A DNA stretch of 46,024 bases. Source: a virus. Its lineage: Duplodnaviria; Heunggongvirae; Uroviricota; Caudoviricetes. The stretch lies in IMG/VR virus record IMGVR_UViG_2718218133_000007, one strand, 5' to 3'. Numbering within the stretch: position 1 is the first letter of the stretch; every line of letters begins with the position of its first letter. Under the pieces are notes generated by a model that worked only from the letters and a program-made list of their open reading frames with translations, was not told the origin of the DNA and did no database searches. The position numbers and the translations under genes are program-made. Positions 6,173-44,336 of the stretch are shown here, one piece after another.

Positions 6173-9100
6173 TCAGCTGATACTGATGCCTGCGGTGGCT
6201 TTCTTCATCACCACAACCAGCAAATCGCTGATACTTGCTGTGGGATACCAGCCATTTACCAGCCATGCCGATACAGAAAATTCCAGTGTCATGACACCAC
6301 TGCCTGCAGGCATATCAATAACACCCGTATATATCAGCGTATTATCCAGAGCCGTTCGGTTATAAATTTCAGCACCGTTTTTTCGTACTATCAGACGGCA
6401 TGAGGAGTAGATATCAGTATGATCTTGCTCATGTTTAGCGCCACTGAATGCCACCGCCGGGATAACAATTTGCCGGTCAAACGGCTGATCGTCATAAACC
6501 CTGACGGTAATGGTTCCTGATGGCCACCGCTCCGGTGCACGGGAGTCCCGGGGGAAAGCTTTGCCCACCGTTTTAACGAGATCGCCTTCAATCTGGTTCG
6601 CGGACAGTTTTCCCAGAACCCGGCAGTTCTCGTTAATCGTGACGTTGTTGAGCGTCCCGGAGTTCGCATTCACGTTACCGCTGATATCGGCATTTTTCGC
6701 CGTCAGCCGCCCGTCCGGTGTCAGGGAAAATGCCGGAGGATTACCGCCGCTGGTAATGGTGGGAGCCGTCAGATATTTCAGGAACACTTCGTTCATGAAT
6801 ATCTGATCGCCCTGACCAACAAACATCGGCTTTGTGTTGCCATTCGCAGGATTAACCATCGCAATCCTGTCCGCCGCCAGCAGCACCTGACTCTGCATGC
6901 CGTCAGGGGTGTTCTCAATACCGGCACCAATACCCGCGATATAAAGGCGTCCGTCCTGCATCTGCTGCAGCTTCACAGCCCACATGCTGTTCAGGTTATT
7001 ATTTGTATCAACCTGAACCTTCTGTATCTGCTGGATCGCCGCACTCTGGTCTTCCAGTTTCTTATTGACAGTCTGCGTGATTTCATTGCTGACATCCGTA
7101 ATGGACGTCCTGATTTCAGCCAGGTCAGGCGCAAGCTGACCGTTATCAATCTGCGTCCACAGCTCCTGAGCCAGATGTGTTTTCCCTATCTCTCCTTTGA
7201 AAAAATCCAGGTAACCTTCCGCATCATCGCTCGCCCGACCGATAGCCTCCACGAATGCCGATTTGCCAACAGTATTCACACTGCGGATATAAAAGTAATA
7301 ATCATGGCCCGGTTTGATATTGATACTGGCGGCTATCCAGTACAGTGCCGTACCAAGATAACGCGCGCTGGTTTCAACCTGCCTGATATCCGCAATCCGT
7401 TTTTCCGAGAACCAGAACTCAAACTGTACCGTCGGGTCATAAACCGCAAGATGCGGCGTGGCGGTTATCTGAAAATAGCCCGGTGTCAGCTCAATCCGAG
7501 ACGGCGCTGCCGGTGCGGCAATCCGGAACGATACCGATGCCGGATCGCCCTGCTGTCCCCACGCATTTACCGCCCGGACTGTCAGCCTGTAGTTCCCCAA
7601 CGCCAGTTGTGTGAAGCGGTATGTGGTTTCCGTCGTCCGGGCCGTGCTGACCAGCCGCTCACTGCCGTCGTCCGCTGTTACGGTCAGACGGAGCAGGAAG
7701 CTCACGCCCTTCACCACCTTCGGTGTGTCCCAGCGCGCCAGCACCTGATATTCCCCGCTGTCTGCGGTGACTTCGGCAGTCAGGTGCTGCACCGCTGGCG
7801 GCGTGACACCATTCACCGTGCCGCTCTGGTCGCCGTCAAAGTGCGCCCCGTTATCCACGATGGCCTCTTTTTCCGGCACATGCTGCACGGCGGTGATGGC
7901 ATACGTGCCGTCGTCGTTCTCACGGATACTCACACAGCGGAACAGGCGCTGGCGCAGCGTCGGCAGCTTCAGCCCCCACACACTGTATTCTGCAACGCCG
8001 TCAGGAACCCGGTTCACTTTCACCTTAAGTCCGTCGGTGACGGACTGAACCTCCACGCTGACCGGATTACCACTTCCGTCAACCAGGCTTATCAGCGTGG
8101 TACCGGAGGATGGCAGCGTGATTTCACGGTCGAGCGTCAGCGTCCGGGTCTGGCTGTTCACCGCCAGCACGCGACCACCGGTGCTGATACCGACATAGTC
8201 ATCATCGCAGATTTCAATGACATCGCCCGGTACATGGCGAAGCCCTTCAGCACCCACGCTGAAATCCACGGTCTGCGTCTCCAGCAGTTCCGTTTTAATC
8301 AGCCACAGCCCGGCGCGGTGTGCCTGCCCCCGGCTGGTACAGCCAAAGGCATCCATCTTCGTGACATTACGACCGTAACGGGCAATGGCCTGCGTATCTT
8401 CAACAAGCTCTGTCGCCGTCTCCCAGCCGTTGTCCGGGTCAATCCAGTTCACCTCAACGGCATTATGGCGGTCCTTCAGGGCGCTGAAGCTGTAGCGGAA
8501 CGGCGCGCCATCATCCGGCATCACCACATTACTGCGGTTATAGGTCCACACCTTATCCGACGGTCGGTCCTGCACGAACGTCAGCGTCTGCCCGTTCCAT
8601 ACCGGCATACAGCGCATCGCCGAGCAGAAATCACTGAGCACATCCCACGCCTTGCGCTGTGTGGTCAGGTACGCATTACAGGTGATGCGCGGCTCCGTGC
8701 CGCCAAAGCCGTCCGGCACTGACTGGTCGCAGTACTGGCCGATGACATACAGCGCCCATTTGTCCACATCCGCCGCACCAAGACGTTTCCCCATGCCGTA
8801 GCGTGGATGGGTCAGCATATCCCACAGACACCAGGCCATGTTATTGCTGTATGCTGGCTTAAACGTTCCGTCCCAGATACCGCTGTATTGCCGAGTCTGC
8901 GGGTTATAGTTCGACGGCACCTGCAGAATACGCCCGCGCAGATGATAATTACGGCTCACCTGCTGGCTGCCGAACTGCTCCGAATCCACCTGTACGCCGA
9001 CCAGTGCCGTGTTCGGGTAGCACTGTTTCACATCGATGATTTCGGTGTATGACGACCAGAGCGTTTTGTTCTGCAGCTGGTCTGTGGTGCTGTCCGGCGT

Positions 9101-31603: not shown

Positions 31604-31996
31604 TTATTTCGAACAATCAGCATCCATCTCCAATCGGAGATCCAACACCATCAGCATACCCTCCACTACGCCCTCAGCTTTCTGAAGCATCCTGCCAACC
31701 CAACAATCAGATCGCCCATGCTTACGTGCAAGCGCCATAAAAGTCATGCCGCCGACATAATAGTCCACCAATAAATCATGCAAATCGCTGTTGTTCTTTT
31801 TCAGACGGGCCATGCACCCGCAAATGATCATCGCGTCATCGTCACAACATTGTGGGCGAGATTTTACTTTTGAAGTAATTAATCCCTTAAAACCGGCGGC
31901 AATGGACGACCAGGTCACATCTTCATGATTATTAGCCGCCCACGCTCCCCAACGCTCAAGAACCATCTGAATATCACGCATCAACTTACTCCACAA
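31604..31996 (-). CDS. Q: late-gene antiterminator Q (QuuD / phage 82-type)
   Basis: …[34 protein letters not shown]…[16 protein letters not shown]… resembles recalled QuuD; position downstream of rusA and upstream of late region; true start may be an internal Met. Confidence 0.8.
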
Positions 31997-34911: not shown

Positions 34912-36438
34912 TCAAAAATAAACCTCACCATCAACCATATATTTGAGAGTACTTATCGCCTGCTGGGCGGATATTGTTTTCATTAAAGGATAGTGTTTAA
35001 AAACAATGCCATTCATAAAATAGATATCACAGGTTTTATTATCTGTATTGATTATGATTTTTTCGAATGTTTTATAGGCAAGTGTACGACATAGCTCTCG
35101 CCCATTTTTACTGGTTAAGTCAATAGCATGAAAATCACCAAGTGAACTCACCGCTTTACTCTTCAAAGTTTTTAATGATACAGAAGCCCTTCGTAATTCC
35201 TTATCTAATACTCTGATTTTTTCTGCTATAGCGGTAACTTCAGGCGCAACAGATAATGCAGCAATTAAATTATTAATTTTCATCTGGAGCTCAATAATTT
35301 TCAACTCTAAAGTTTCATTAGCATCTTTCTTGTTTTCAACTGGTTGGATTTTACTACAATTAAAAAGCAACTCATTAATGATATTATAATCAACCAAATC
35401 TCTCTTTATTGATGGCCTGTCACATCGATGCAGTCTTCTCATCGGACAAACATAATAGCCATGCAAACTTCCAGATACCGCATGAACAATCATGGTATTA
35501 CCACAAGCCTCGCACTTCATAACTGTTCGAAGTAGATTTATCAACATAGGATTTTTGCTACTATTGCTAATACCAAAAGGTGCCAACCGAATTTCCTGTA
35601 CAGCGTAAAACAAATCATCTGATATGACTCTGGGATAATAGCCAGCGATTTCACTTATTCCTTTACCTCTTGCACGATATGAAGGTACGCATATACCTAT
35701 CAGAGCTTTATTCGCTAATAATTTTTCAATTACAGAAGGTCCCCATGCACTTTCTTTTCCTGAGAAATTCTTTACAGCATGATCATTTAAATACTTGGCT
35801 ATTGCATTCAATGAGCGCCTTTCCATCCTGAGTTTAAAAATTAGCTCAATAGTTTTCACCCTGTCGGGGTCTGGAACAAAAGCCGTTCTTTTGTCATCTA
35901 AGGAGAGCCATCTCGGACAAGACGCCGTCATAATCGTACCTGATTCCAGTGCATCCTGCCGTTTTTTCTTCCATGATAATTTAACCCGACTTGACTTTAT
36001 CTCGCTTTCTTCATTTGCCCTTTGTGCTATAAGTATGGCTTTTATTAATGAATATGGCTCATTCAAAGAGTCAATATTATAGACTGTATTGTCGCAAAGA
36101 GTTATAACATCAATACCGTGATTCAAAATCAATTTCAGACGTTCAATCGCTTCACCGACTTTTTCTCTTGAAAGTCTGTCCAGACTTTCAACTAACAATG
36201 TAGTTCCTGGCAATATATAACCATGCTCTATAGCATCTAAAAATTCCGAAAAAGCTCCTGATTGTGCATGCTTTCCTTTGAATGCACTTAATCCTAAATC
36301 TTCATATGTTATGGTATCAAGATAATAATCACTATTTACCTTTAACCATTCAGCAATAAGTCTTCTCTGTCGGTTTAATGAGTCGCCAGACATCTGACCT
36401 GGTGATGAAAATCGCATATATGCTATGGCTTTTTTCAT
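34912..36438 (-). CDS. ybcK: large serine recombinase (resolvase/invertase-type N-terminal domain, recombinase domain, zinc ribbon, coiled coil), YbcK-like
   Basis: 508-aa ORF; N-terminal …AIAYMRFSSPGQ… with candidate catalytic Ser; Cys cluster CEACG…C…C; AT-rich; adjacent to emrE as in DLP12. Confidence 0.75.
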   Translation of the reverse strand: MKKAIAYMRFSSPGQMSGDSLNRQRRLIAEWLKVNSDYYLDTITYEDLGLSAFKGKHAQSGAFSEFLDAIEHGYILPGTTLLVESLDRLSREKVGEAIERLKLILNHGIDVITLCDNTVYNIDSLNEPYSLIKAILIAQRANEESEIKSSRVKLSWKKKRQDALESGTIMTASCPRWLSLDDKRTAFVPDPDRVKTIELIFKLRMERRSLNAIAKYLNDHAVKNFSGKESAWGPSVIEKLLANKALIGICVPSYRARGKGISEIAGYYPRVISDDLFYAVQEIRLAPFGISNSSKNPMLINLLRTVMKCEACGNTMIVHAVSGSLHGYYVCPMRRLHRCDRPSIKRDLVDYNIINELLFNCSKIQPVENKKDANETLELKIIELQMKINNLIAALSVAPEVTAIAEKIRVLDKELRRASVSLKTLKSKAVSSLGDFHAIDLTSKNGRELCRTLAYKTFEKIIINTDNKTCDIYFMNGIVFKHYPLMKTISAQQAISTLKYMVDGEVYF

Positions 36439-36694
36439 GGTGACACCTGCTAACGTATGCTTTTATAAACCTTAGTGGTGGGATATAATTTTTGTTTAAT
36501 TTTTATTTAAAAAGACAATTAAGGTCACATTATCTTGAATATACAACAATAATCGTATTGCAATTTTCTTACGCCATAATCTTGAAAGCACAAAAGAATA
36601 CATAAAAAAATAAAGACATTAACAAAAAGCATAAAACGAGGCTCATATAAATATAAGAGCCTCCATATTTTAGTCGTTTAGAAACAAATTATTT

Positions 36695-37027
36695 TTAATG
36701 TGGTGTGCTTCGTGACAATAAATTAATAACCAACACACCGGCACAAATCAACATCATGCCTATAATGGCTGGCAGGTCCAGCCGTTGGCCGAAAAGTCCC
36801 CATGACAGTAAGCTAATCAGGACAATACCGACTCCTGACCAGATAGCATAAGCAATCCCTGTAGGAATATAAGCCAGCGTCTGAGCTAATAACCAGAATG
36901 ATGCACAATAACAAATAATTGTACCAACAGATGGCCATAACCGTGTAAAACCTTCTGAAAACTTCATTAAGGTTGTACCAATGACCTCTGCAAGTATTGC
37001 ACCACCAAGATAAATATAAGGGTTCAT
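36695..37027 (-). CDS. emrE: small multidrug resistance efflux transporter EmrE
   Basis: 110 aa from MNPYIYLGGAILAEVIGTTLMKFSEGF… matches recalled EmrE; four TM segments; ORF track extends to 37081. Confidence 0.9.
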   Translation of the reverse strand: MNPYIYLGGAILAEVIGTTLMKFSEGFTRLWPSVGTIICYCASFWLLAQTLAYIPTGIAYAIWSGVGIVLISLLSWGLFGQRLDLPAIIGMMLICAGVLVINLLSRSTPH

Positions 37028-37094
37028 AGAATATTCTTTCCTGTTCAAACTGGAGAGAATTGTACTACAGTTTGAACTCAACTCACCTGTTTCA

Positions 37095-38095: not shown

Positions 38096-39111
38096 AAATC
38101 CACCCCGTAAATCCAGTCAGTGTTTGTCAGGTCGAGTTTTGGTTTGCTGGCTATCATGCCTGCCTGTTGCTTGTTACGGTTGATTTCGAGTTGGGTCCAC
38201 TTGTCGCGGAGTTTGGCCGGACTTAGCACGTTACCGGACCAGAAGTTGTCCTGGCATGCCCAGCGGAAAAGCACGCACATGTCGCGGTGGTTACGTCCGT
38301 CACGTTCACGCATCAGGCGGATATCGTTAGCCCACCCTGCAAAATTCGGTTTTCTGGCTGATGGTGCGATGGTCTTCACCATGTCAAACATCCACTCTGC
38401 GGCGGTCAGGTCTTCTGCTGTCCCCCACTTGCTGCCGCTCTGAATTGCAGCATCTGGTTTCACCACAGGAAGATCGTTTTCTGGTTGGTCAGAGGATTCG
38501 CCAGAATTCTCGGACGAAAAAGGTTTTATATTGTCTTTTGTTAGTTTGTCTTTTGTGTTTACCTGATTCGGGTAAACGCCTTTACCTGATTTGGGTAAAC
38601 TTTTCTTACCTGATTCAGGTAAATTTACCTCTTTCAGGTAAACTTTATTTTTCTTACCTGATTCGGGTAATGTTGACCATTCACTGACCACATTATTAAT
38701 ACCGATATTCCGCCCGCTCTGAATCAAAATCCCACGCTTTACCAGAACACTTTTTGCAGCAGAACACTTGTGCGGTAATATCCCGGTCAATCCGGACAGT
38801 TGCTCGTTGCTCACCCAATCCAGTTTTTTATTAAAGCCATATGTTTTGCGCATGACAGCCAGGAAGACCAGAAGCTGGTGCTGTGTTAATCCGGCCAGCA
38901 TCACAGCTTCCAGCAACTCATTTGCAATGCGCGTATAACCATCATCGAGATCTGCCACGCGCGGCTCCTTTTGTGCCGCATCCGGCACTGGAAAATTGAA
39001 TATCTCAGCAGTGTTTGCCATAATTCCTCCCGCAATGAGTGTGTTACGATTTGCACCTGAAAGTCGGTTCTGTTCCAGCAGACCGGCTTTCGCCATTTCT
39101 GAACCTGTCAT
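38092..39111 (-). CDS. O: replication initiator protein O (contains ori)
   Basis: N- and C-terminal regions resemble lambda O; iterons inside the gene; start codon uncertain (Met1, Met6 or Met31 of the track ORF). Confidence 0.85.
   Translation of the reverse strand: MTGSEMAKAGLLEQNRLSGANRNTLIAGGIMANTAEIFNFPVPDAAQKEPRVADLDDGYTRIANELLEAVMLAGLTQHQLLVFLAVMRKTYGFNKKLDWVSNEQLSGLTGILPHKCSAAKSVLVKRGILIQSGRNIGINNVVSEWSTLPESGKKNKVYLKEVNLPESGKKSLPKSGKGVYPNQVNTKDKLTKDNIKPFSSENSGESSDQPENDLPVVKPDAAIQSGSKWGTAEDLTAAEWMFDMVKTIAPSARKPNFAGWANDIRLMRERDGRNHRDMCVLFRWACQDNFWSGNVLSPAKLRDKWTQLEINRNKQQAGMIASKPKLDLTNTDWIYGVDL
38558..38672. repeat. origin iterons (4-5 copies of a ~19-20-bp unit tacctgattcgggtaaa-like) with adjacent AT-rich tract
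   Basis: tttacctgattcgggtaaac, tttacctgatttgggtaaac, cttacctgattcaggtaaat, ttacctctttcaggtaaac, cttacctgattcgggtaatg read directly; AT-rich segment at ~38520-38557. Confidence 0.8.
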
Positions 39112-39691: not shown

Positions 39692-39704
39692 TTGTTAAAG
39701 AGCG
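39692..39704 (-). promoter_or_regulatory. boxA-like element (CGCTCTTTAACAA) in the cro-proximal rightward transcript (nutR-like)
   Basis: + strand ttgttaaagagcg; lies between cro stop and the next gene; no convincing boxB hairpin identified. Confidence 0.45.
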
Positions 39705-39716
39705 TGAAATGGAAAT

Positions 39717-39947
39717 TTAAGCTGCGTTCTTTTCGGTGTGTGGAAACAACTTCGGAAGATCCGGGCGAATCTGGTATGCCTTCACTACTCCACCAGTAGC
39801 CGTAACAATGCTGCCGACATGTTCAGGGGATACCTTTGCTTTGTTGTGAAGCCACTTATAGACGGCCTGCTGTGAAACTTCGCAAGCAGCGCCCAGTTTC
39901 TTTTGTGAACCAACGATATTGATCGCTGTTTTGATAGCTGGGTTCAT
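39717..39947 (-). CDS. cro: Cro-like repressor (HTH)
   Basis: 76-aa ORF with HTH (…QKKLGAACEVSQQAVYKWLH…), divergent from cI, first gene of rightward operon. Confidence 0.75.
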   Translation of the reverse strand: MNPAIKTAINIVGSQKKLGAACEVSQQAVYKWLHNKAKVSPEHVGSIVTATGGVVKAYQIRPDLPKLFPHTEKNAA

Positions 39948-40051
39948 AACAACCTCCGTGGTTAATTTGAATCAAGATTAAAACTATGGTTGTTTTTAGT
40001 CAACAACCATTTTCGTTTGATGGAATAAAACCTTGGTTGTACATTTGGACT
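39948..40051. promoter_or_regulatory. OR-like operator/promoter region between cro and cI (PR/PRM)
   Basis: Repeated ACAACC / GGTTGT half-sites in inverted arrangement (e.g. atggttgtttttagtcaacaaccat) in the divergent intergenic region. Confidence 0.6.
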
Positions 40052-40741
40052 ATGAAAACAACACTCTCAGAAAGACTTAAAGAAGCCAGATTAGCGCGAG
40101 GCCTTACACAAAAGGCGCTTGGGGATTTGGTCGGGGTTAGCCAGGCTGCTATTCAGAAAATCGAAACAGGGAAAGCTAATCAAACAACTAAAATCGTGGA
40201 GATCGCGAACGCTTTGGGTGTGCGCGCAGAATGGTTATCTTCTGGCGTTGGAAATATGTCAGACAGTACAGTGCAACCAATACAATCAACTGTCAGCCAT
40301 TCCAAATACTTCAAGATTGACGTTCTTGATATAGAAGTCAGTGCTGGGCCGGGAGTCATCAACCGTGAGTTTGTAGAAGTTCTACGCTCGGTTGAGTACT
40401 CGTTTGACGATGCTCGTCACATGTTCGATGGTAGGAAGGCGGAAAATATCCGCATCATTAACGTGCGTGGTGACAGCATGTCAGGAACGATCGAACCAGG
40501 TGATCTGCTGTTCGTTGATATCACAGTTAAATCTTTCGACGGTGATGGTATCTATGCGTTTCTGTACGACGACACAGCCCATGTAAAGCGCCTGCAAATG
40601 ATGAAGGATAAGCTGCTGGTCATCTCTGATAACAAAAGCTACTCACCGTGGGACCCGATCGAGAAAGACGAGATGAACCGGGTGTTCATCTTCGGTAAGG
40701 TTATTGGGAGCATGCCGCAGACATATAGGAAGCATGGGTAG
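40052..40741 (+). CDS. cI: CI-type prophage repressor (N-terminal HTH, C-terminal LexA/S24-like autocleavage domain)
   Basis: MKTTLSERLKEARLARGLTQKALGDLVGVSQAAIQKIETGK… HTH; C-terminal GDSM…KRL Ser/Lys dyad; start placed at Met23 of the track ORF (39986). Confidence 0.85.
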   Translation: MKTTLSERLKEARLARGLTQKALGDLVGVSQAAIQKIETGKANQTTKIVEIANALGVRAEWLSSGVGNMSDSTVQPIQSTVSHSKYFKIDVLDIEVSAGPGVINREFVEVLRSVEYSFDDARHMFDGRKAENIRIINVRGDSMSGTIEPGDLLFVDITVKSFDGDGIYAFLYDDTAHVKRLQMMKDKLLVISDNKSYSPWDPIEKDEMNRVFIFGKVIGSMPQTYRKHG

Positions 40742-40863
40742 TACCAATTAAAAATTATCAACTGGGCATTGTGCTCATTCAGTAAAGAACTAATTCCTAT
40801 CTTTGCTCTAGGTAGTAATATTAAGCCACCGCAATAATATCTTTACCTAACGGCGTAAGAATC

Positions 40864-40889
40864 CCGGTCACCGTGCCGGGTTTTCTTTT
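40864..40889 (+). terminator. intrinsic terminator downstream of cI
   Basis: cccgg-tcaccgtg-ccggg followed by ttttctttt. Confidence 0.55.
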
Positions 40890-40979
40890 GCCCTCCCCTC
40901 ATCACACACACCGTTAAAAAAACCACCATAACCTCGCTTCAGTTATCGCTATGCGATTCAAGTCACAAAATAAATCCAT

Positions 40980-41060
40980 CCTAAATACAACCAGTTATAT
41001 CTAAAACAACCAATAAAACAACTTTTGTTGTTGACGATAAAACAACTATAGTTTTAAATA
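40980..41060 (+). promoter_or_regulatory. OL/pL-like region: ACAAC/GTTGT operator repeats with candidate -35 TTGACG and -10 TAAATA (18-bp spacer)
   Basis: aacaacttttgttgttgacg…(18 bp)…taaata; same half-site family as the OR region. Confidence 0.5.
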
Positions 41061-41335
41061 AGTTCATCGCAACAACACAACGATACGGCAACTACCTGAT
41101 TCACCGTTGCGATGACCGCTTAGATCCGCAGTTTGAATTTCAGCAGGCTTCGGGGAGTGCGAGGGGTGAAACGGACGCGTGAACGTCGGTGTGACCAGCT
41201 GAAATTAACTCAACATTTCATACCTCAGTCGCTTCAACGAGGCGGCTTAGTTATGACAACCGGCGGCCATCCACCGCCTGAATATGCGCAGAAGTCTCTA
41301 TATGTTCAGCAGCCCAGCTTACGGGCGGAGTTTTT

Positions 41336-41542
41336 ATGGTTCATCAACATTACGGAACACAGACCGTTAATCGCGGCGCGGTCATGCCAGGAATGCTGGT
41401 CAAACACAAAGATGGTACCTGGACTGCATCAGCTAATTTACGCGGACGGCTTTATCTGCATCGCGGCATCGAGCGCACTTATACCAGTGATTTGCTCGTG
41501 GAAGTTTTTCTCGACGGACGCGGTAACGGCCTGAATCACTAA
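41336..41542 (+). CDS. hypothetical small protein (68 aa) immediately upstream of gam
   Basis: Good RBS (ggcggag-N5-ATG); natural-looking composition; occupies the kil/cIII position. Confidence 0.45.
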   Translation: MVHQHYGTQTVNRGAVMPGMLVKHKDGTWTASANLRGRLYLHRGIERTYTSDLLVEVFLDGRGNGLNH

Positions 41543-41618
41543 CCCCCCTTTCCTGTTTTCCTAATCAGCCTGGCATTTCGCGGGCGATATTTTCACAGCC
41601 ATTTTCAGGAGTTCAGCC

Positions 41619-41915
41619 ATGAACGCTTATTACATTCAGGATCGTCTTGAGGCTCAGAGCTGGGCGCGTCACTACCAGCAGCTCGCCCGTGAAGAGAAAG
41701 AGGCAGAACTGGCAGACGACATGGAAAAAGGTCTGCCCCAGCACCTGTTTGAATCACTCTGCATCGATCATTTACAACGCCACGGGGCCAGCAAAAAAGC
41801 CATTACCCGTGCGTTTGATGACGATGTTGAGTTTCAGGAGCGCATGGCAGAACACATCCGGTACATGGTTGAAACCATTGCTCACCACCAGGTTGATATT
41901 GATTCAGAGGTATAA
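41619..41915 (+). CDS. gam: Gam (RecBCD inhibitor), short form
   Basis: 98-aa [34 protein letters not shown]… matches recalled lambda GamS; in-frame stop upstream excludes the long form. Confidence 0.9.
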
Positions 41916-41920
41916 AACGG

Positions 41921-42706
41921 ATGAGTACAGCACTCGCAACGCTGGCTGGGAAGCTGGCTGAACGCGTCGGCATGGATTCTGTCGACCCACAGGAACTGAT
42001 CACCACTCTTCGCCAGACGGCATTTAAAGGTGATGCCAGCGATGCGCAGTTCATCGCATTGCTGATCGTCGCCAACCAGTACGGCCTTAATCCGTGGACG
42101 AAAGAAATTTACGCCTTCCCTGACAAGCAGAACGGCATCGTTCCGGTGGTGGGCGTTGATGGCTGGCCCCGTATCATCAATGAAAACCAGCAGTTTGATG
42201 GCATGGACTTTGAGCAGGACAATGAATCCTGCACATGCCGGATTTACCGCAAGGACCGCAATCATCCGATCTGCGTTACCGAGTGGATGGATGAATGCCG
42301 CCGCGAACCATTCAAAACCCGCGAAGGCAGAGAAATCACGGGGCCGTGGCAGTCGCATCCCAAACGGATGTTACGGCATAAAGCCATGATTCAGTGTGCC
42401 CGTCTCGCCTTCGGATTTGCTGGTATCTATGACAAGGATGAAGCCGAGCGCATTGTCGAAAATACCGCATACACTGCAGAACGTCAGCCGGAACGCGACA
42501 TCACTCCGGTTAACGATGAAACCATGCAGGAGATTAACACTCTGCTGATCGCCCTGGATAAAACATGGAATGACGACTTATTGCCGCTCTGTTCCCAGAT
42601 ATTTCGCCGCGACATTCGCGCATCGTCAGAACTGACACAGGCCGAAGCAGTGAAAGCTCTTGGTTTCCTGAAACAGAAAGCCACTGAGCAGAAGGTGGCA
42701 GCATGA
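41921..42706 (+). CDS. bet: Bet (Red-beta ssDNA annealing protein)
   Basis: 261-aa ORF matching recalled lambda Bet. Confidence 0.95.
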
Positions 42707-43383
42707 CACCGGACATTATCCTGCAGCGTACCGGGATCGACGTGAGAGCTGTCGAACAGGGGGATGATGCATGGCACAAATTACGGCTCGGCGTCATCAC
42801 CGCTTCAGAAGTTCACAACGTGATAGCCAAGCCCCGCTCAGGAAAGAAGTGGCCTGACATGAAAATGTCCTACTTCCACACCCTGCTGGCTGAGGTTTGC
42901 ACCGGTGTGGCTCCGGAAGTTAATGCTAAGGCGCTGGCATGGGGAAAACAGTACGAGAACGACGCCAGAACTCTGTTTGAATTCACTTCCGGCGTGAATG
43001 TTACTGAATCCCCGATCATCTATCGCGACGAAAGTATGCGCACCGCCTGCTCTCCCGATGGTTTATGCAGTGACGGCAATGGCCTTGAGCTGAAATGCCC
43101 GTTTACCTCCCGGGATTTCATGAAGTTCCGGCTCGGTGGTTTCGAGGCCATAAAGTCGGCTTACATGGCCCAGGTGCAGTACAGCATGTGGGTGACACGA
43201 AAAGATGCCTGGTACTTTGCCAACTATGACCCGCGTATGAAGCGTGAAGGACTGCATTATGTCGTGGTTGAGCGGGATGAAAAGTACATGGCGAGTTTTG
43301 ACGAGATGGTGCCGGAGTTCATCGAAAAAATGGACGAGGCACTGGCTGAAATTGGTTTTGTATTTGGGGAGCAATGGCGATGA
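42703..43383 (+). CDS. exo: Exo (lambda exonuclease, Red-alpha)
   Basis: 226-aa ORF matching recalled lambda Exo. Confidence 0.95.
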
Positions 43384-43726: not shown

Positions 43727-43836
43727 CAACCACTGAATGCATTTTTCTGGCAGCGGGCTTCATATTCTGTGTGCTTATGCTTGCCGACATGGGGCTTGTT
43801 TAATGACACCTCAGCAAGAAAACGCCCTTCGCAGCA

Positions 43837-44019
43837 TTGCCCGTCAGGCTAATTCTGAAATCAAAAAAAGCCAGACAGCAGTTTCCGGATAAAAACGTCG
43901 ATGACATTTGCCGTAGCGTACTGAAGAAGCACCGCGAAACGGTAACGCTGATGGGATTCACACCAACTCATTTAAGCCTGGCGATCGGCATGTTAAACGG
44001 CGTCTTTAAGGAACGATGA
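43837..44019 (+). CDS. small hypothetical protein
   Basis: 60-aa ORF in the early-left operon. Confidence 0.35.
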   Translation: MPVRLILKSKKARQQFPDKNVDDICRSVLKKHRETVTLMGFTPTHLSLAIGMLNGVFKER

Positions 44020-44117
44020 ACATGAAAAGCAAAATTATCAGGGAGCTACAGGCTCCTTTTTTATTGTTCGCATTCACCCTCAAGCGTATTAACCAACAGT
44101 TCAGGGATTAATGAAAG

Positions 44118-44336
44118 ATGGCAGACATCATTGATTCAGCATCAGAAATCGAAGAATTACAGCGCAATACAGCAATAAAAATGCGTCGTCAGAACTACCA
44201 GACTGTATCCGCAACTCATTGTTGTGAGTGTGGCGATCCGATAGCTGAGCGAAGACGCCTGGCTGTTCAGGGTTGTCGGACTTGTGCAAGTTGCCAGGAG
44301 GAGATCGAACTTAAGAACAAACAATGGGGACTGTGA
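44118..44336 (+). CDS. DksA/TraR-family C4 zinc-finger protein
   Basis: 72-aa ORF with CxxC…(17)…CxxC (CCECGDPIAERRRLAVQGCRTCASCQ). Confidence 0.75.
   Translation: MADIIDSASEIEELQRNTAIKMRRQNYQTVSATHCCECGDPIAERRRLAVQGCRTCASCQEEIELKNKQWGL

Follow-up and report, generated by a model that had tools for sequence, protein, structure and literature searches.

Two early antitermination signals have been described at the start of the pL operon of lambdoid phages: the N–nut system of lambda and phi80, and the put RNA of HK022, to which a put-like element in HK639 corresponds. HK022 put acts in cis through the zinc-binding domain of the RNA polymerase β′ subunit and requires no protein factors. To our knowledge, put, EAR and a few aptamer-like motifs are the only RNAs that reprogram RNA polymerase directly, and of these put alone has a solved mechanism. 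Here we analyse IMG/VR virus record IMGVR_UViG_2718218133_000007, a 46,024-nucleotide (nt) stretch of DNA (hereafter the window) that spans the immunity and early region of a lambdoid Escherichia coli prophage and in which a first-pass annotation had reported no recognisable N antiterminator downstream of pL. For lambdoid phages that lack N, an HK022-type put RNA is the usual suspicion (for example, PMC12315714). We found neither signal, and describe a conserved 97-nt RNA element in the N position that is a candidate cis-acting antitermination signal.

Before gam, a 133-amino-acid (aa) and a 68-aa open reading frame (ORF) are the sole ORFs downstream of pL, and searches of both against Pfam, PHROGs and NCBIfam returned no N family. 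Querying the window by tblastn with N and Nun proteins (phi80 N and HK022 Nun from database records, and lambda N and P22 gp24) returned noise only (best E = 0.36), and the remaining ORFs of the pL operon fall into non-N PHROGs (DUF1317-like, DUF1382-like, DksA/TraR-like and excisionase). The reported lack of an N gene was thus borne out, and the idea that N is present in a highly divergent form found no support in family matches or in similarity to N proteins. A computational search for boxB hairpins at nutL and nutR found none; the pR transcript does carry a boxA. In the pL leader, no boxA was detected at up to three mismatches (41060–41340), and no 5-base-pair (bp) hairpin with a boxB-like GNRA pentaloop occurs among the predicted or conserved structures. 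A conserved CGCUUAGA in the leader is not credible as a boxA and is partly base-paired.

For put, we collected HK022 putL and putR, the annotated put-like element of HK639 and 40 distinct put sequences from a pattern scan of IMG/VR, and built a covariance model (R1) from 20 sequences with a pairing scheme based on cryo-electron microscopy (PMC9378689). On put phages outside its training set, R1 scored 95–97 bits. Its best score in the window was 10.5 bits, inside the O gene; it did not match the put signature GAACGGC...GUCGG...GGCGKG...CAAU with stems I and II anywhere in the window, and had no match in 18 loci bearing the element described below. A likeness of the window leader to put (GAAACGGACGCG...CGUCGG) was rejected by the covariance model and is missing from the sister clade of the element. 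Rfam gave no match (whole window at gathering thresholds; 40700–41700 at E ≤ 10; HK022, HK639, phi80 and the sister-clade locus L219), which says little because Rfam contains no put family. By these searches, the window contains neither N nor an HK022-type put.

A conserved RNA element in the pL leader

What occupies the N slot is, as judged from conservation and folding, an RNA and not a protein gene. The element (41114–41210, + strand, 97 nt) begins approximately 50 nt into the transcript and is predicted to form two adjacent imperfect hairpins, D1 (41117–41161, with three helices) and D2 (41162–41200). In the consensus fold, obtained with RNAalifold from 13 distinct sequences of both clades, 99.3% of sequence-by-pair cells are paired, compared with 25–39% and zero compensatory changes when partners are slid. 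Three pairs changed in a compensatory manner between the clades, two of them in helix P3 (41130–41135/41144–41149; A-U to C-G, and G-C to A-U) and one in helix P5 (41171–41176/41185–41190; A-U to G-C). Every one-sided change retains pairing, and the element has exactly the same length in both clades though the top of D2 differs entirely in sequence. The two-hairpin fold is the minimum-free-energy structure in three of four variants (the majority E. coli variant and both sister-clade variants), and D1 alone adopts its consensus fold in all four. We rejected a single long hairpin (41136–41206), the minimum-free-energy structure of the window itself, in which 90.9% of cells are paired and natural variants break the inner helix and the terminal pairs.

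A covariance model of the element (R2) matched the window once, at 119 bits, and gave no match in 54 put, nut or other loci. The element is found in 2209 of 5426 complete E. coli genomes (~40%), including O157:H7, and conservation extends from the first transcribed bases onward across phages that differ in their pL and operator sequences. Scanning IMG/VR for the pattern of the outer helix identified the sister-clade locus L219, whose copy is 82% identical, and a second scan enlarged this clade to 15 contigs with 8 promoter/operator types and unchanged element length. Further IMG/VR pattern scans, aimed at a third element clade or at any cassette other than put, nutL and the element behind the shared flank, gave only known types.

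The flanks of the element connect it to both described signals. An HK639-type promoter and 5′ flank (...GCCAGCGGCGAAGTGGAG) are followed by the element in two loci (L269 and L278) and by put in HK639 itself; likewise, a phi80-type promoter and 5′ flank lead into the element in L271 and L272, and into the nutL boxA/boxB and N in phi80. The 3′ flank is common to L219, L272 and HK639. Shared promoters and flanks around swapped inserts thus indicate that the element occupies the slot of both known early antitermination signals, and put, nutL and the element are mutually exclusive across all loci compared.

In the sister clade, the element is followed by a terminator. All eight loci with enough sequence carry a canonical intrinsic terminator 0.7–1.9 kilobases (kb) past the element and upstream of kil-gam (for example, ACCCGCTCCGGCGGGTTTTTT). 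Beyond it come a conserved hairpin module (H1/H2, described below), a 52-aa gene, kil and gam. Unrelated morons fill the space between element and terminator (TerB-like, TciB-like, HNH endonuclease and unknown genes), and none of these is N-like or shared. Neither N nor put was found there, leaving the element as the only conserved feature upstream of tL1. Given this predicted layout, kil, gam and the recombination genes of sister-clade phages can be expressed only by readthrough of tL1. The window looks like the same layout with morons and tL1 deleted; an equivalent deletion is seen in two put phages (L032 and L036), in which the H1/H2 module lies within ~15 nt of put.

We propose that pL transcription starts near 41065–41066 and would yield a 270-nt leader with a 5′ hairpin, the element and the H1/H2 module, followed by kil. 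The element would fold co-transcriptionally into its adjacent imperfect stem-loops and make the polymerase from which it emerged resistant to terminators further downstream; the target would be the terminator at 44040 in the window, and the tL1-type terminator between pL and kil-gam in the sister clade. It would then be equivalent in function to put and nutL, not homologous to them, and would most probably act without a phage protein. Among the options that the first-pass annotation had listed, the evidence therefore favours delayed-early expression by another mechanism, which is not HK022-type put either. That cis-acting early antitermination signals include a third, previously undescribed type, represented by the 97-nt element, strikes us as an evenly balanced proposition. 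More tentatively, an RNA of ~85–97 nt and two hairpins might on its own make E. coli RNA polymerase terminator-resistant and travel as a mobile leader-slot cassette, present in prophages of ~40% of sequenced E. coli.

Several points weigh against this proposal. We infer antitermination, and independence of a phage factor, from position, exchange and conservation. The window's own variant slightly favours one long hairpin over the two-hairpin fold, compensatory pairs are few, and the two clades are in effect one evolutionary split. Stability is modest (z = −0.66 for the whole leader and −1.77 for 41128–41215, which covers most of the element), and blastn-short, nhmmer and the covariance model found no second copy of leader or element in the pR operon. 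An earlier description of the element may exist. PMC9378689 (2022) names only 'ten known put sequences', which align with HK022 put, and the element is not alignable among HK022-put-type sequences. Two further observations concern the operon itself. The window has no terminator between the element and kil-gam-bet-exo, so that the need for antitermination would be limited to distal genes or Rho-dependent sites, although a good intergenic intrinsic terminator is retained at 44040, before the traR-like gene, xis and int. Moreover, kil-first prophages of Kluyvera, Citrobacter, Enterobacter and Silvania lack the element, put and an N gene between pL and kil, showing that a pL-kil operon need not carry a recognisable signal.

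These last two observations would also suit a leader that does not antiterminate at all, being an ordinary long 5′ untranslated region that tunes the stability, processing or translation of the toxic kil mRNA, or else a recombination scar, with the delayed-early genes co-transcribed. The division inhibitor Kil plausibly requires tight control, the kil-first leaders of other genera are short, unrelated and devoid of any known antitermination signal, and the pL transcript of the window has a 5′-terminal hairpin, a classic mRNA stabiliser. We nevertheless consider this explanation unlikely. In the sister clade, 0.7–1.9 kb, several unrelated genes and an intrinsic terminator separate the element from kil, and the element is thus not a kil-specific leader. 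That it swaps with put and nutL inside identical flanks, and that the three exclude one another, also argues against a mere untranslated region.

A further question for the antitermination proposal is whether the element might work as a nut-like recruitment site for a trans-acting factor, either a phage protein whose gene lies away from the pL-proximal region or a Nus/SuhB-type complex of the host. The element sits in the nutL slot of phi80-type leaders, and the pR transcript carries a consensus boxA, CGCUCUUUAACAA (CGCTCTTTAACAA; 39692–39704, − strand), in the nutR position, 13 nt past the cro stop codon. This boxA is the only 13/13 consensus match in the window and is taken to indicate Nus engagement on at least one early operon. 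No boxB-like or stable hairpin lies downstream of it. It is kept in all prophages of the window's immunity type and was not found in the Lambda_4C10, Perceval and O157 relatives (L006, L007 and L144), which have other immunity regions. Because rrn operons use boxA alone to resist Rho, the pR operon may, by analogy, rely on host Nus factors for rrn-type protection, which keeps a host factor in play for the pL element as well. However, the element contains neither a boxA, at the threshold applied to the leader, nor a boxB-like GNRA pentaloop hairpin. Only the Kil and Gam families are common to the pL operons of both clades, and the clades pair with at least 11 immunity regions, making a matched protein partner in the immunity region unlikely. 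A trans-acting factor is thus an improbable requirement in our view. Separately, the put phage L070 carries exactly the same boxA 13-mer on the strand opposite its putL.

Reading frames overlapping the leader

The shorter of the two ORFs before gam (41336–41542, + strand) starts with ATG behind a Shine–Dalgarno sequence (GGAG, 41327–41330). Profile searches matched its residues 1–68 to PHROG 294, 'Kil protein for bacterial septation inhibition' (E = 2.1e-37), and to NCBIfam PRK11354, 'FtsZ inhibitor protein' (E = 3e-18), at 65.5 bits, which does not reach the curated cutoff of 92. RefSeq names identical 68-aa proteins 'phage encoded cell division inhibitor protein'. Homologues of 79–87% identity occur in Kluyvera, Citrobacter, Enterobacter, Silvania and Pseudocitrobacter, and those of other genera begin at the same ATG with their own Shine–Dalgarno sequence. 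Among 40 distinct natural variants of 41100–41545, 20 of 26 variable sites within kil fall at kil codon position 3, which is position 2 of the 133-aa frame. By homology and codon pattern, the 68-aa ORF is the real kil, a Kil/KilR-type FtsZ inhibitor gene under purifying selection and the first real gene of the pL operon.

The 133-aa ORF (41133–41534, + strand) starts with TTG, begins MNFSRLRGVRGVKRTRERR and runs in another frame. The first-pass annotation had placed both ORFs correctly and in the right frames; its statement that the longer one fully overlaps the shorter needs amending, as the last 8 nt of the 68-aa ORF lie outside. No Pfam, PHROG or NCBIfam family matches the 133-aa ORF. Upstream of kil, substitutions in the 40 variants are distributed 12/8/10 over positions 1/2/3 of its codons, showing no third-position bias, and indels (+1, +5, −1, −2 and +1) disrupt its frame in relatives. 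The TTG frame of the sister clade has only five codons before its stop (AGG TGA). For these reasons, we conclude that the 133-aa ORF is spurious, an artefact of translating leader RNA. The RNA structures within its span are also conserved among phages in reading frames that differ from one phage to another.

The 133-aa ORF had been offered as a possible N because of its Arg-rich start, RLRGVRGVKRTRERR, loosely resembling an N arginine-rich motif. The start is real as a translation, but it reflects GGN and CGN codons of a G-rich structured RNA and does not represent a conserved peptide. A second route to N, through a frameshifted or fused gene, also has a basis in the data. Nine bases 5′ of the kil ATG, 38 of the 40 variants have an additional A that joins the upstream frame to kil. 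The indel site (41326/41327; GGGC-GGAG compared with GGGCAGGAG) decides whether the upstream frame enters kil, and this fusion explains the 128-aa and 139-aa 'Kil' coding sequences (CDSs) of PhiR47_2 and Perceval, respectively. The 1-nt fusion is therefore genuine, but the unbiased substitutions upstream, the other indels and the sister-clade stop speak against a translated N portion. Taking the 133-aa ORF, or the kil fusion seen in most relatives, as a divergent N-like antiterminator would further have to accommodate a peptide region that coincides with covarying RNA helices, Kil homologues in other genera that start at the 68-aa ATG, and the lack of a boxB for an arginine-rich motif to bind. 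We regard this explanation as very improbable. Judged by sequence, the 68-aa ORF alone is real and the 133-aa ORF spurious, an outcome that the first-pass annotation had listed among those that would refute it.

GenBank annotation of this region varies. The Turner record has a 94-aa hypothetical CDS in another frame, whereas the Prokaryotic Genome Annotation Pipeline (PGAP) calls the 68-aa gene; the differing calls lie at L002 3377–3763, L007 3758–4177 and L001 1606–1887. The 94–139-aa 'hypothetical' and 'Kil' CDSs would need correction as artefacts of the RNA region, with the real Kil being 68 aa long.

Promoter, hairpin module and neighbouring genes

The predicted pL promoter and its operators span 41008–41059 (+ strand), with a −35 box TTGACG (41031–41036) and a −10 box TTAAAT (41054–41059) spaced by 17 nt. 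Operator repeats ATAAAACAAC lie at 41013–41029 and 41037–41053 (direct repeat D11), and an inverted repeat (I7, 95%) relates the pL operators to the pR region at 39978–39996. Homology to phages of other immunity starts at 41066–41067, just past the promoter block, and continues at ~96% identity through to kil. The transcript probably starts near 41065–41067, at CAUCG, leaving 270 nt of untranslated leader up to kil; in related pL operons, all transcripts begin CATCG. In Kluyvera, Silvania, Enterobacter and Citrobacter (L135–L141), a pL-like promoter lies ~85–230 nt 5′ of kil, the first gene. Those leaders are short and unrelated to the window element, yet their transcripts begin CATCG, and some share a hairpin GACAAC-AAGCGCAYC-GTTGTC.

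At its 5′ end, the pL transcript can form a hairpin with a 10-bp stem (41064–41115, + strand; UCAUCGCAAC ... GUUGCGAUGA; z = −3.67 compared with shuffles). Its role is uncertain because the O157:H7 variant has the 5′ arm replaced. In that variant (L144 2430–2510, E. coli O157:H7 Z1836), another promoter precedes the element and kil, which follow an XRE repressor gene and a SIR2-family gene, and the replaced arm points to a recombination junction inside the leader, at about 41100 of the window. An 11-nt match of the leader (41093–41103) to an origin iteron was dismissed as being at chance level (E = 2).

Downstream of the element lies the H1/H2 module, a conserved non-coding module (41219–41297, + strand) composed of H1 (41219–41255), H2 (41262–41278) and the tract GCGCAGAAGUCU (41286–41297). 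H1 has an invariant base, CAUA/UAUG, and a loop UUCAnnGAG or UUUnCGAG, on a stem that differs wholly between phages and still pairs; seven of its pairs show compensatory changes, with up to five pair types per pair. H2 is GGCGG-CCAUCCA-CCGCC, and in some phages a U-run accompanies it and the annotation calls it a terminator. The tract after H2 falls in different frames across phages, and the ATG at 41253 therefore starts no conserved peptide. The module occurs in phi80, HK639, HK225, KO-TP1, CobraSix, S9-5 and many IMG/VR contigs; copies include L008 2500–2600 and L009 3000–3080. In other lambdoid phages, it lies directly 3′ of the first intrinsic terminator of the pL operon, which in phi80 is tL1A, after N. 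Hairpins with the same loop (UUUGCGAG, UUUACGAG or UUCAACGAG) and unrelated stems are found ~12–20 nt past put or the element in many phages (L009 1925–1955, L219 − strand ~8500–8530, and L070); the H1 loop of the window (41227–41247) is alike.

The layout of the pL operon is as the first-pass annotation described, with gam-bet-exo (41619–43383, + strand; Pfam Gam, ORFs and RefSeq names) soon after the pL-like promoter. The gam gene (41619–41915) matches Pfam Gam at E = 3.7e-65, and exo is followed by small ORFs and then by xis and int, all on the + strand. The terminator scan placed an intergenic intrinsic terminator inside the operon (44040–44068, + strand; AGGGAGCTACAGGCTCCTT + TTTTATTGTT), ~20 nt past a frameshifted ZapA-like gene and before the DksA/TraR-like gene at 44118, xis and int. 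The ZapA-like region (43737–44019, + strand) comprises adjacent 51-aa and 60-aa ORFs, both PHROG 303, and is a frameshifted ZapA-like pseudogene in RefSeq.

On the other side of pL, and transcribed in the same direction, is a cI-like repressor gene (40052–40741, + strand; helix-turn-helix and S24 peptidase, Pfam Peptidase_S24 1.5e-18 and HTH_3 6.5e-13), onto which the RefSeq CDS of an identical prophage maps. The cI transcript has an intrinsic terminator at 40863–40890 (+ strand; CCCGGTCACCGTGCCGGG + TTTTCTTTT; terminator scan). Where the window has ~290 nt of non-coding DNA between cI and pL, two relatives (L002 1648–3076 and L006 2160–3576) hold a two-gene cassette, which is annotated as GevT/GevA toxin–antitoxin in PhiR47_2.

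The − strand carries a Cro-like gene of the YdaS family (39717–39947), a CII-equivalent (YdaT family), O, P and a Ren-like gene, a Q-like antiterminator gene (31604–31996) and a strong terminator (31505–31482). Five ~20-nt iterons (TTTACCTGATTCGGGTAAAC; 38558–38672) lie within the O gene, as expected for a lambdoid replication origin. After the Ren-like gene, the pR operon encodes, at 34912–37081 (− strand), an EmrE-like small multidrug-resistance protein (36695–37081) and a 508-aa serine recombinase (34912–36438), a layout that we take to recall emrE-ybcK of prophage DLP12. Many E. coli chromosomes carry DNA identical to the window region, phage Turner DNA is 99.5% identical, and the near relatives are the Bievrevirus phages Lambda_4C10, 4A7 and Perceval and the PhiR series.

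Comparison with known antitermination systems

Kil itself has clear relatives. These are Rac KilR and the Kil proteins of phi80 and P22-like phages, which are FtsZ inhibitors; the 68-aa ORF matches PHROG 294 and PRK11354 over its full length and, like them, lies upstream of gam. It differs in scoring below the NCBIfam cutoff and in being the first gene of the pL operon here, and it has no antitermination role.

With the rrn-type boxA system (NusB/NusE-boxA, SuhB), the window shares an exact boxA without boxB in a leader or intergenic position, at pR. This boxA belongs to the other early operon, outside the pL region, and its function is predicted from sequence. Antitermination of the rrn type is also used in CRISPR array leaders.

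The N–nut system of lambda and phi80 has the same operon position as the element. Element phages share the phi80-type promoter and 5′ flank and, downstream, tL1 and the H1/H2 module, and the window has a boxA at pR. They part ways in that the window lacks N and any boxA or boxB at pL, and its pR boxA lacks a boxB.

The closest likeness is to put. HK022 put and the put-like element of HK639 also lie just past pL, measure ~70–100 nt, consist of adjacent imperfect stem-loops and occur in phages without N. In put phages, too, variable genes follow and then an intrinsic terminator, and in HK639-type leaders the element stands between exactly the flanks of put. However, no homology is detectable in sequence or structure, and R1 and R2 never cross-match, so that the likeness is one of architecture only. 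HK022 has both putL and putR, whereas the element is present in a single copy in the window; the examined regions of three put phages (L070, L032 and L036) also contain one put each.

If our proposal is correct, it would explain how delayed-early genes are expressed without N in a very common group of E. coli prophages, which includes cultivable Bievrevirus phages. It is also directly testable, as there are phages that match in promoter and flanks and differ only in which of put, nutL and the element they carry. A second, unrelated RNA in the put slot would then provide a natural comparison for how nascent RNA suppresses termination.

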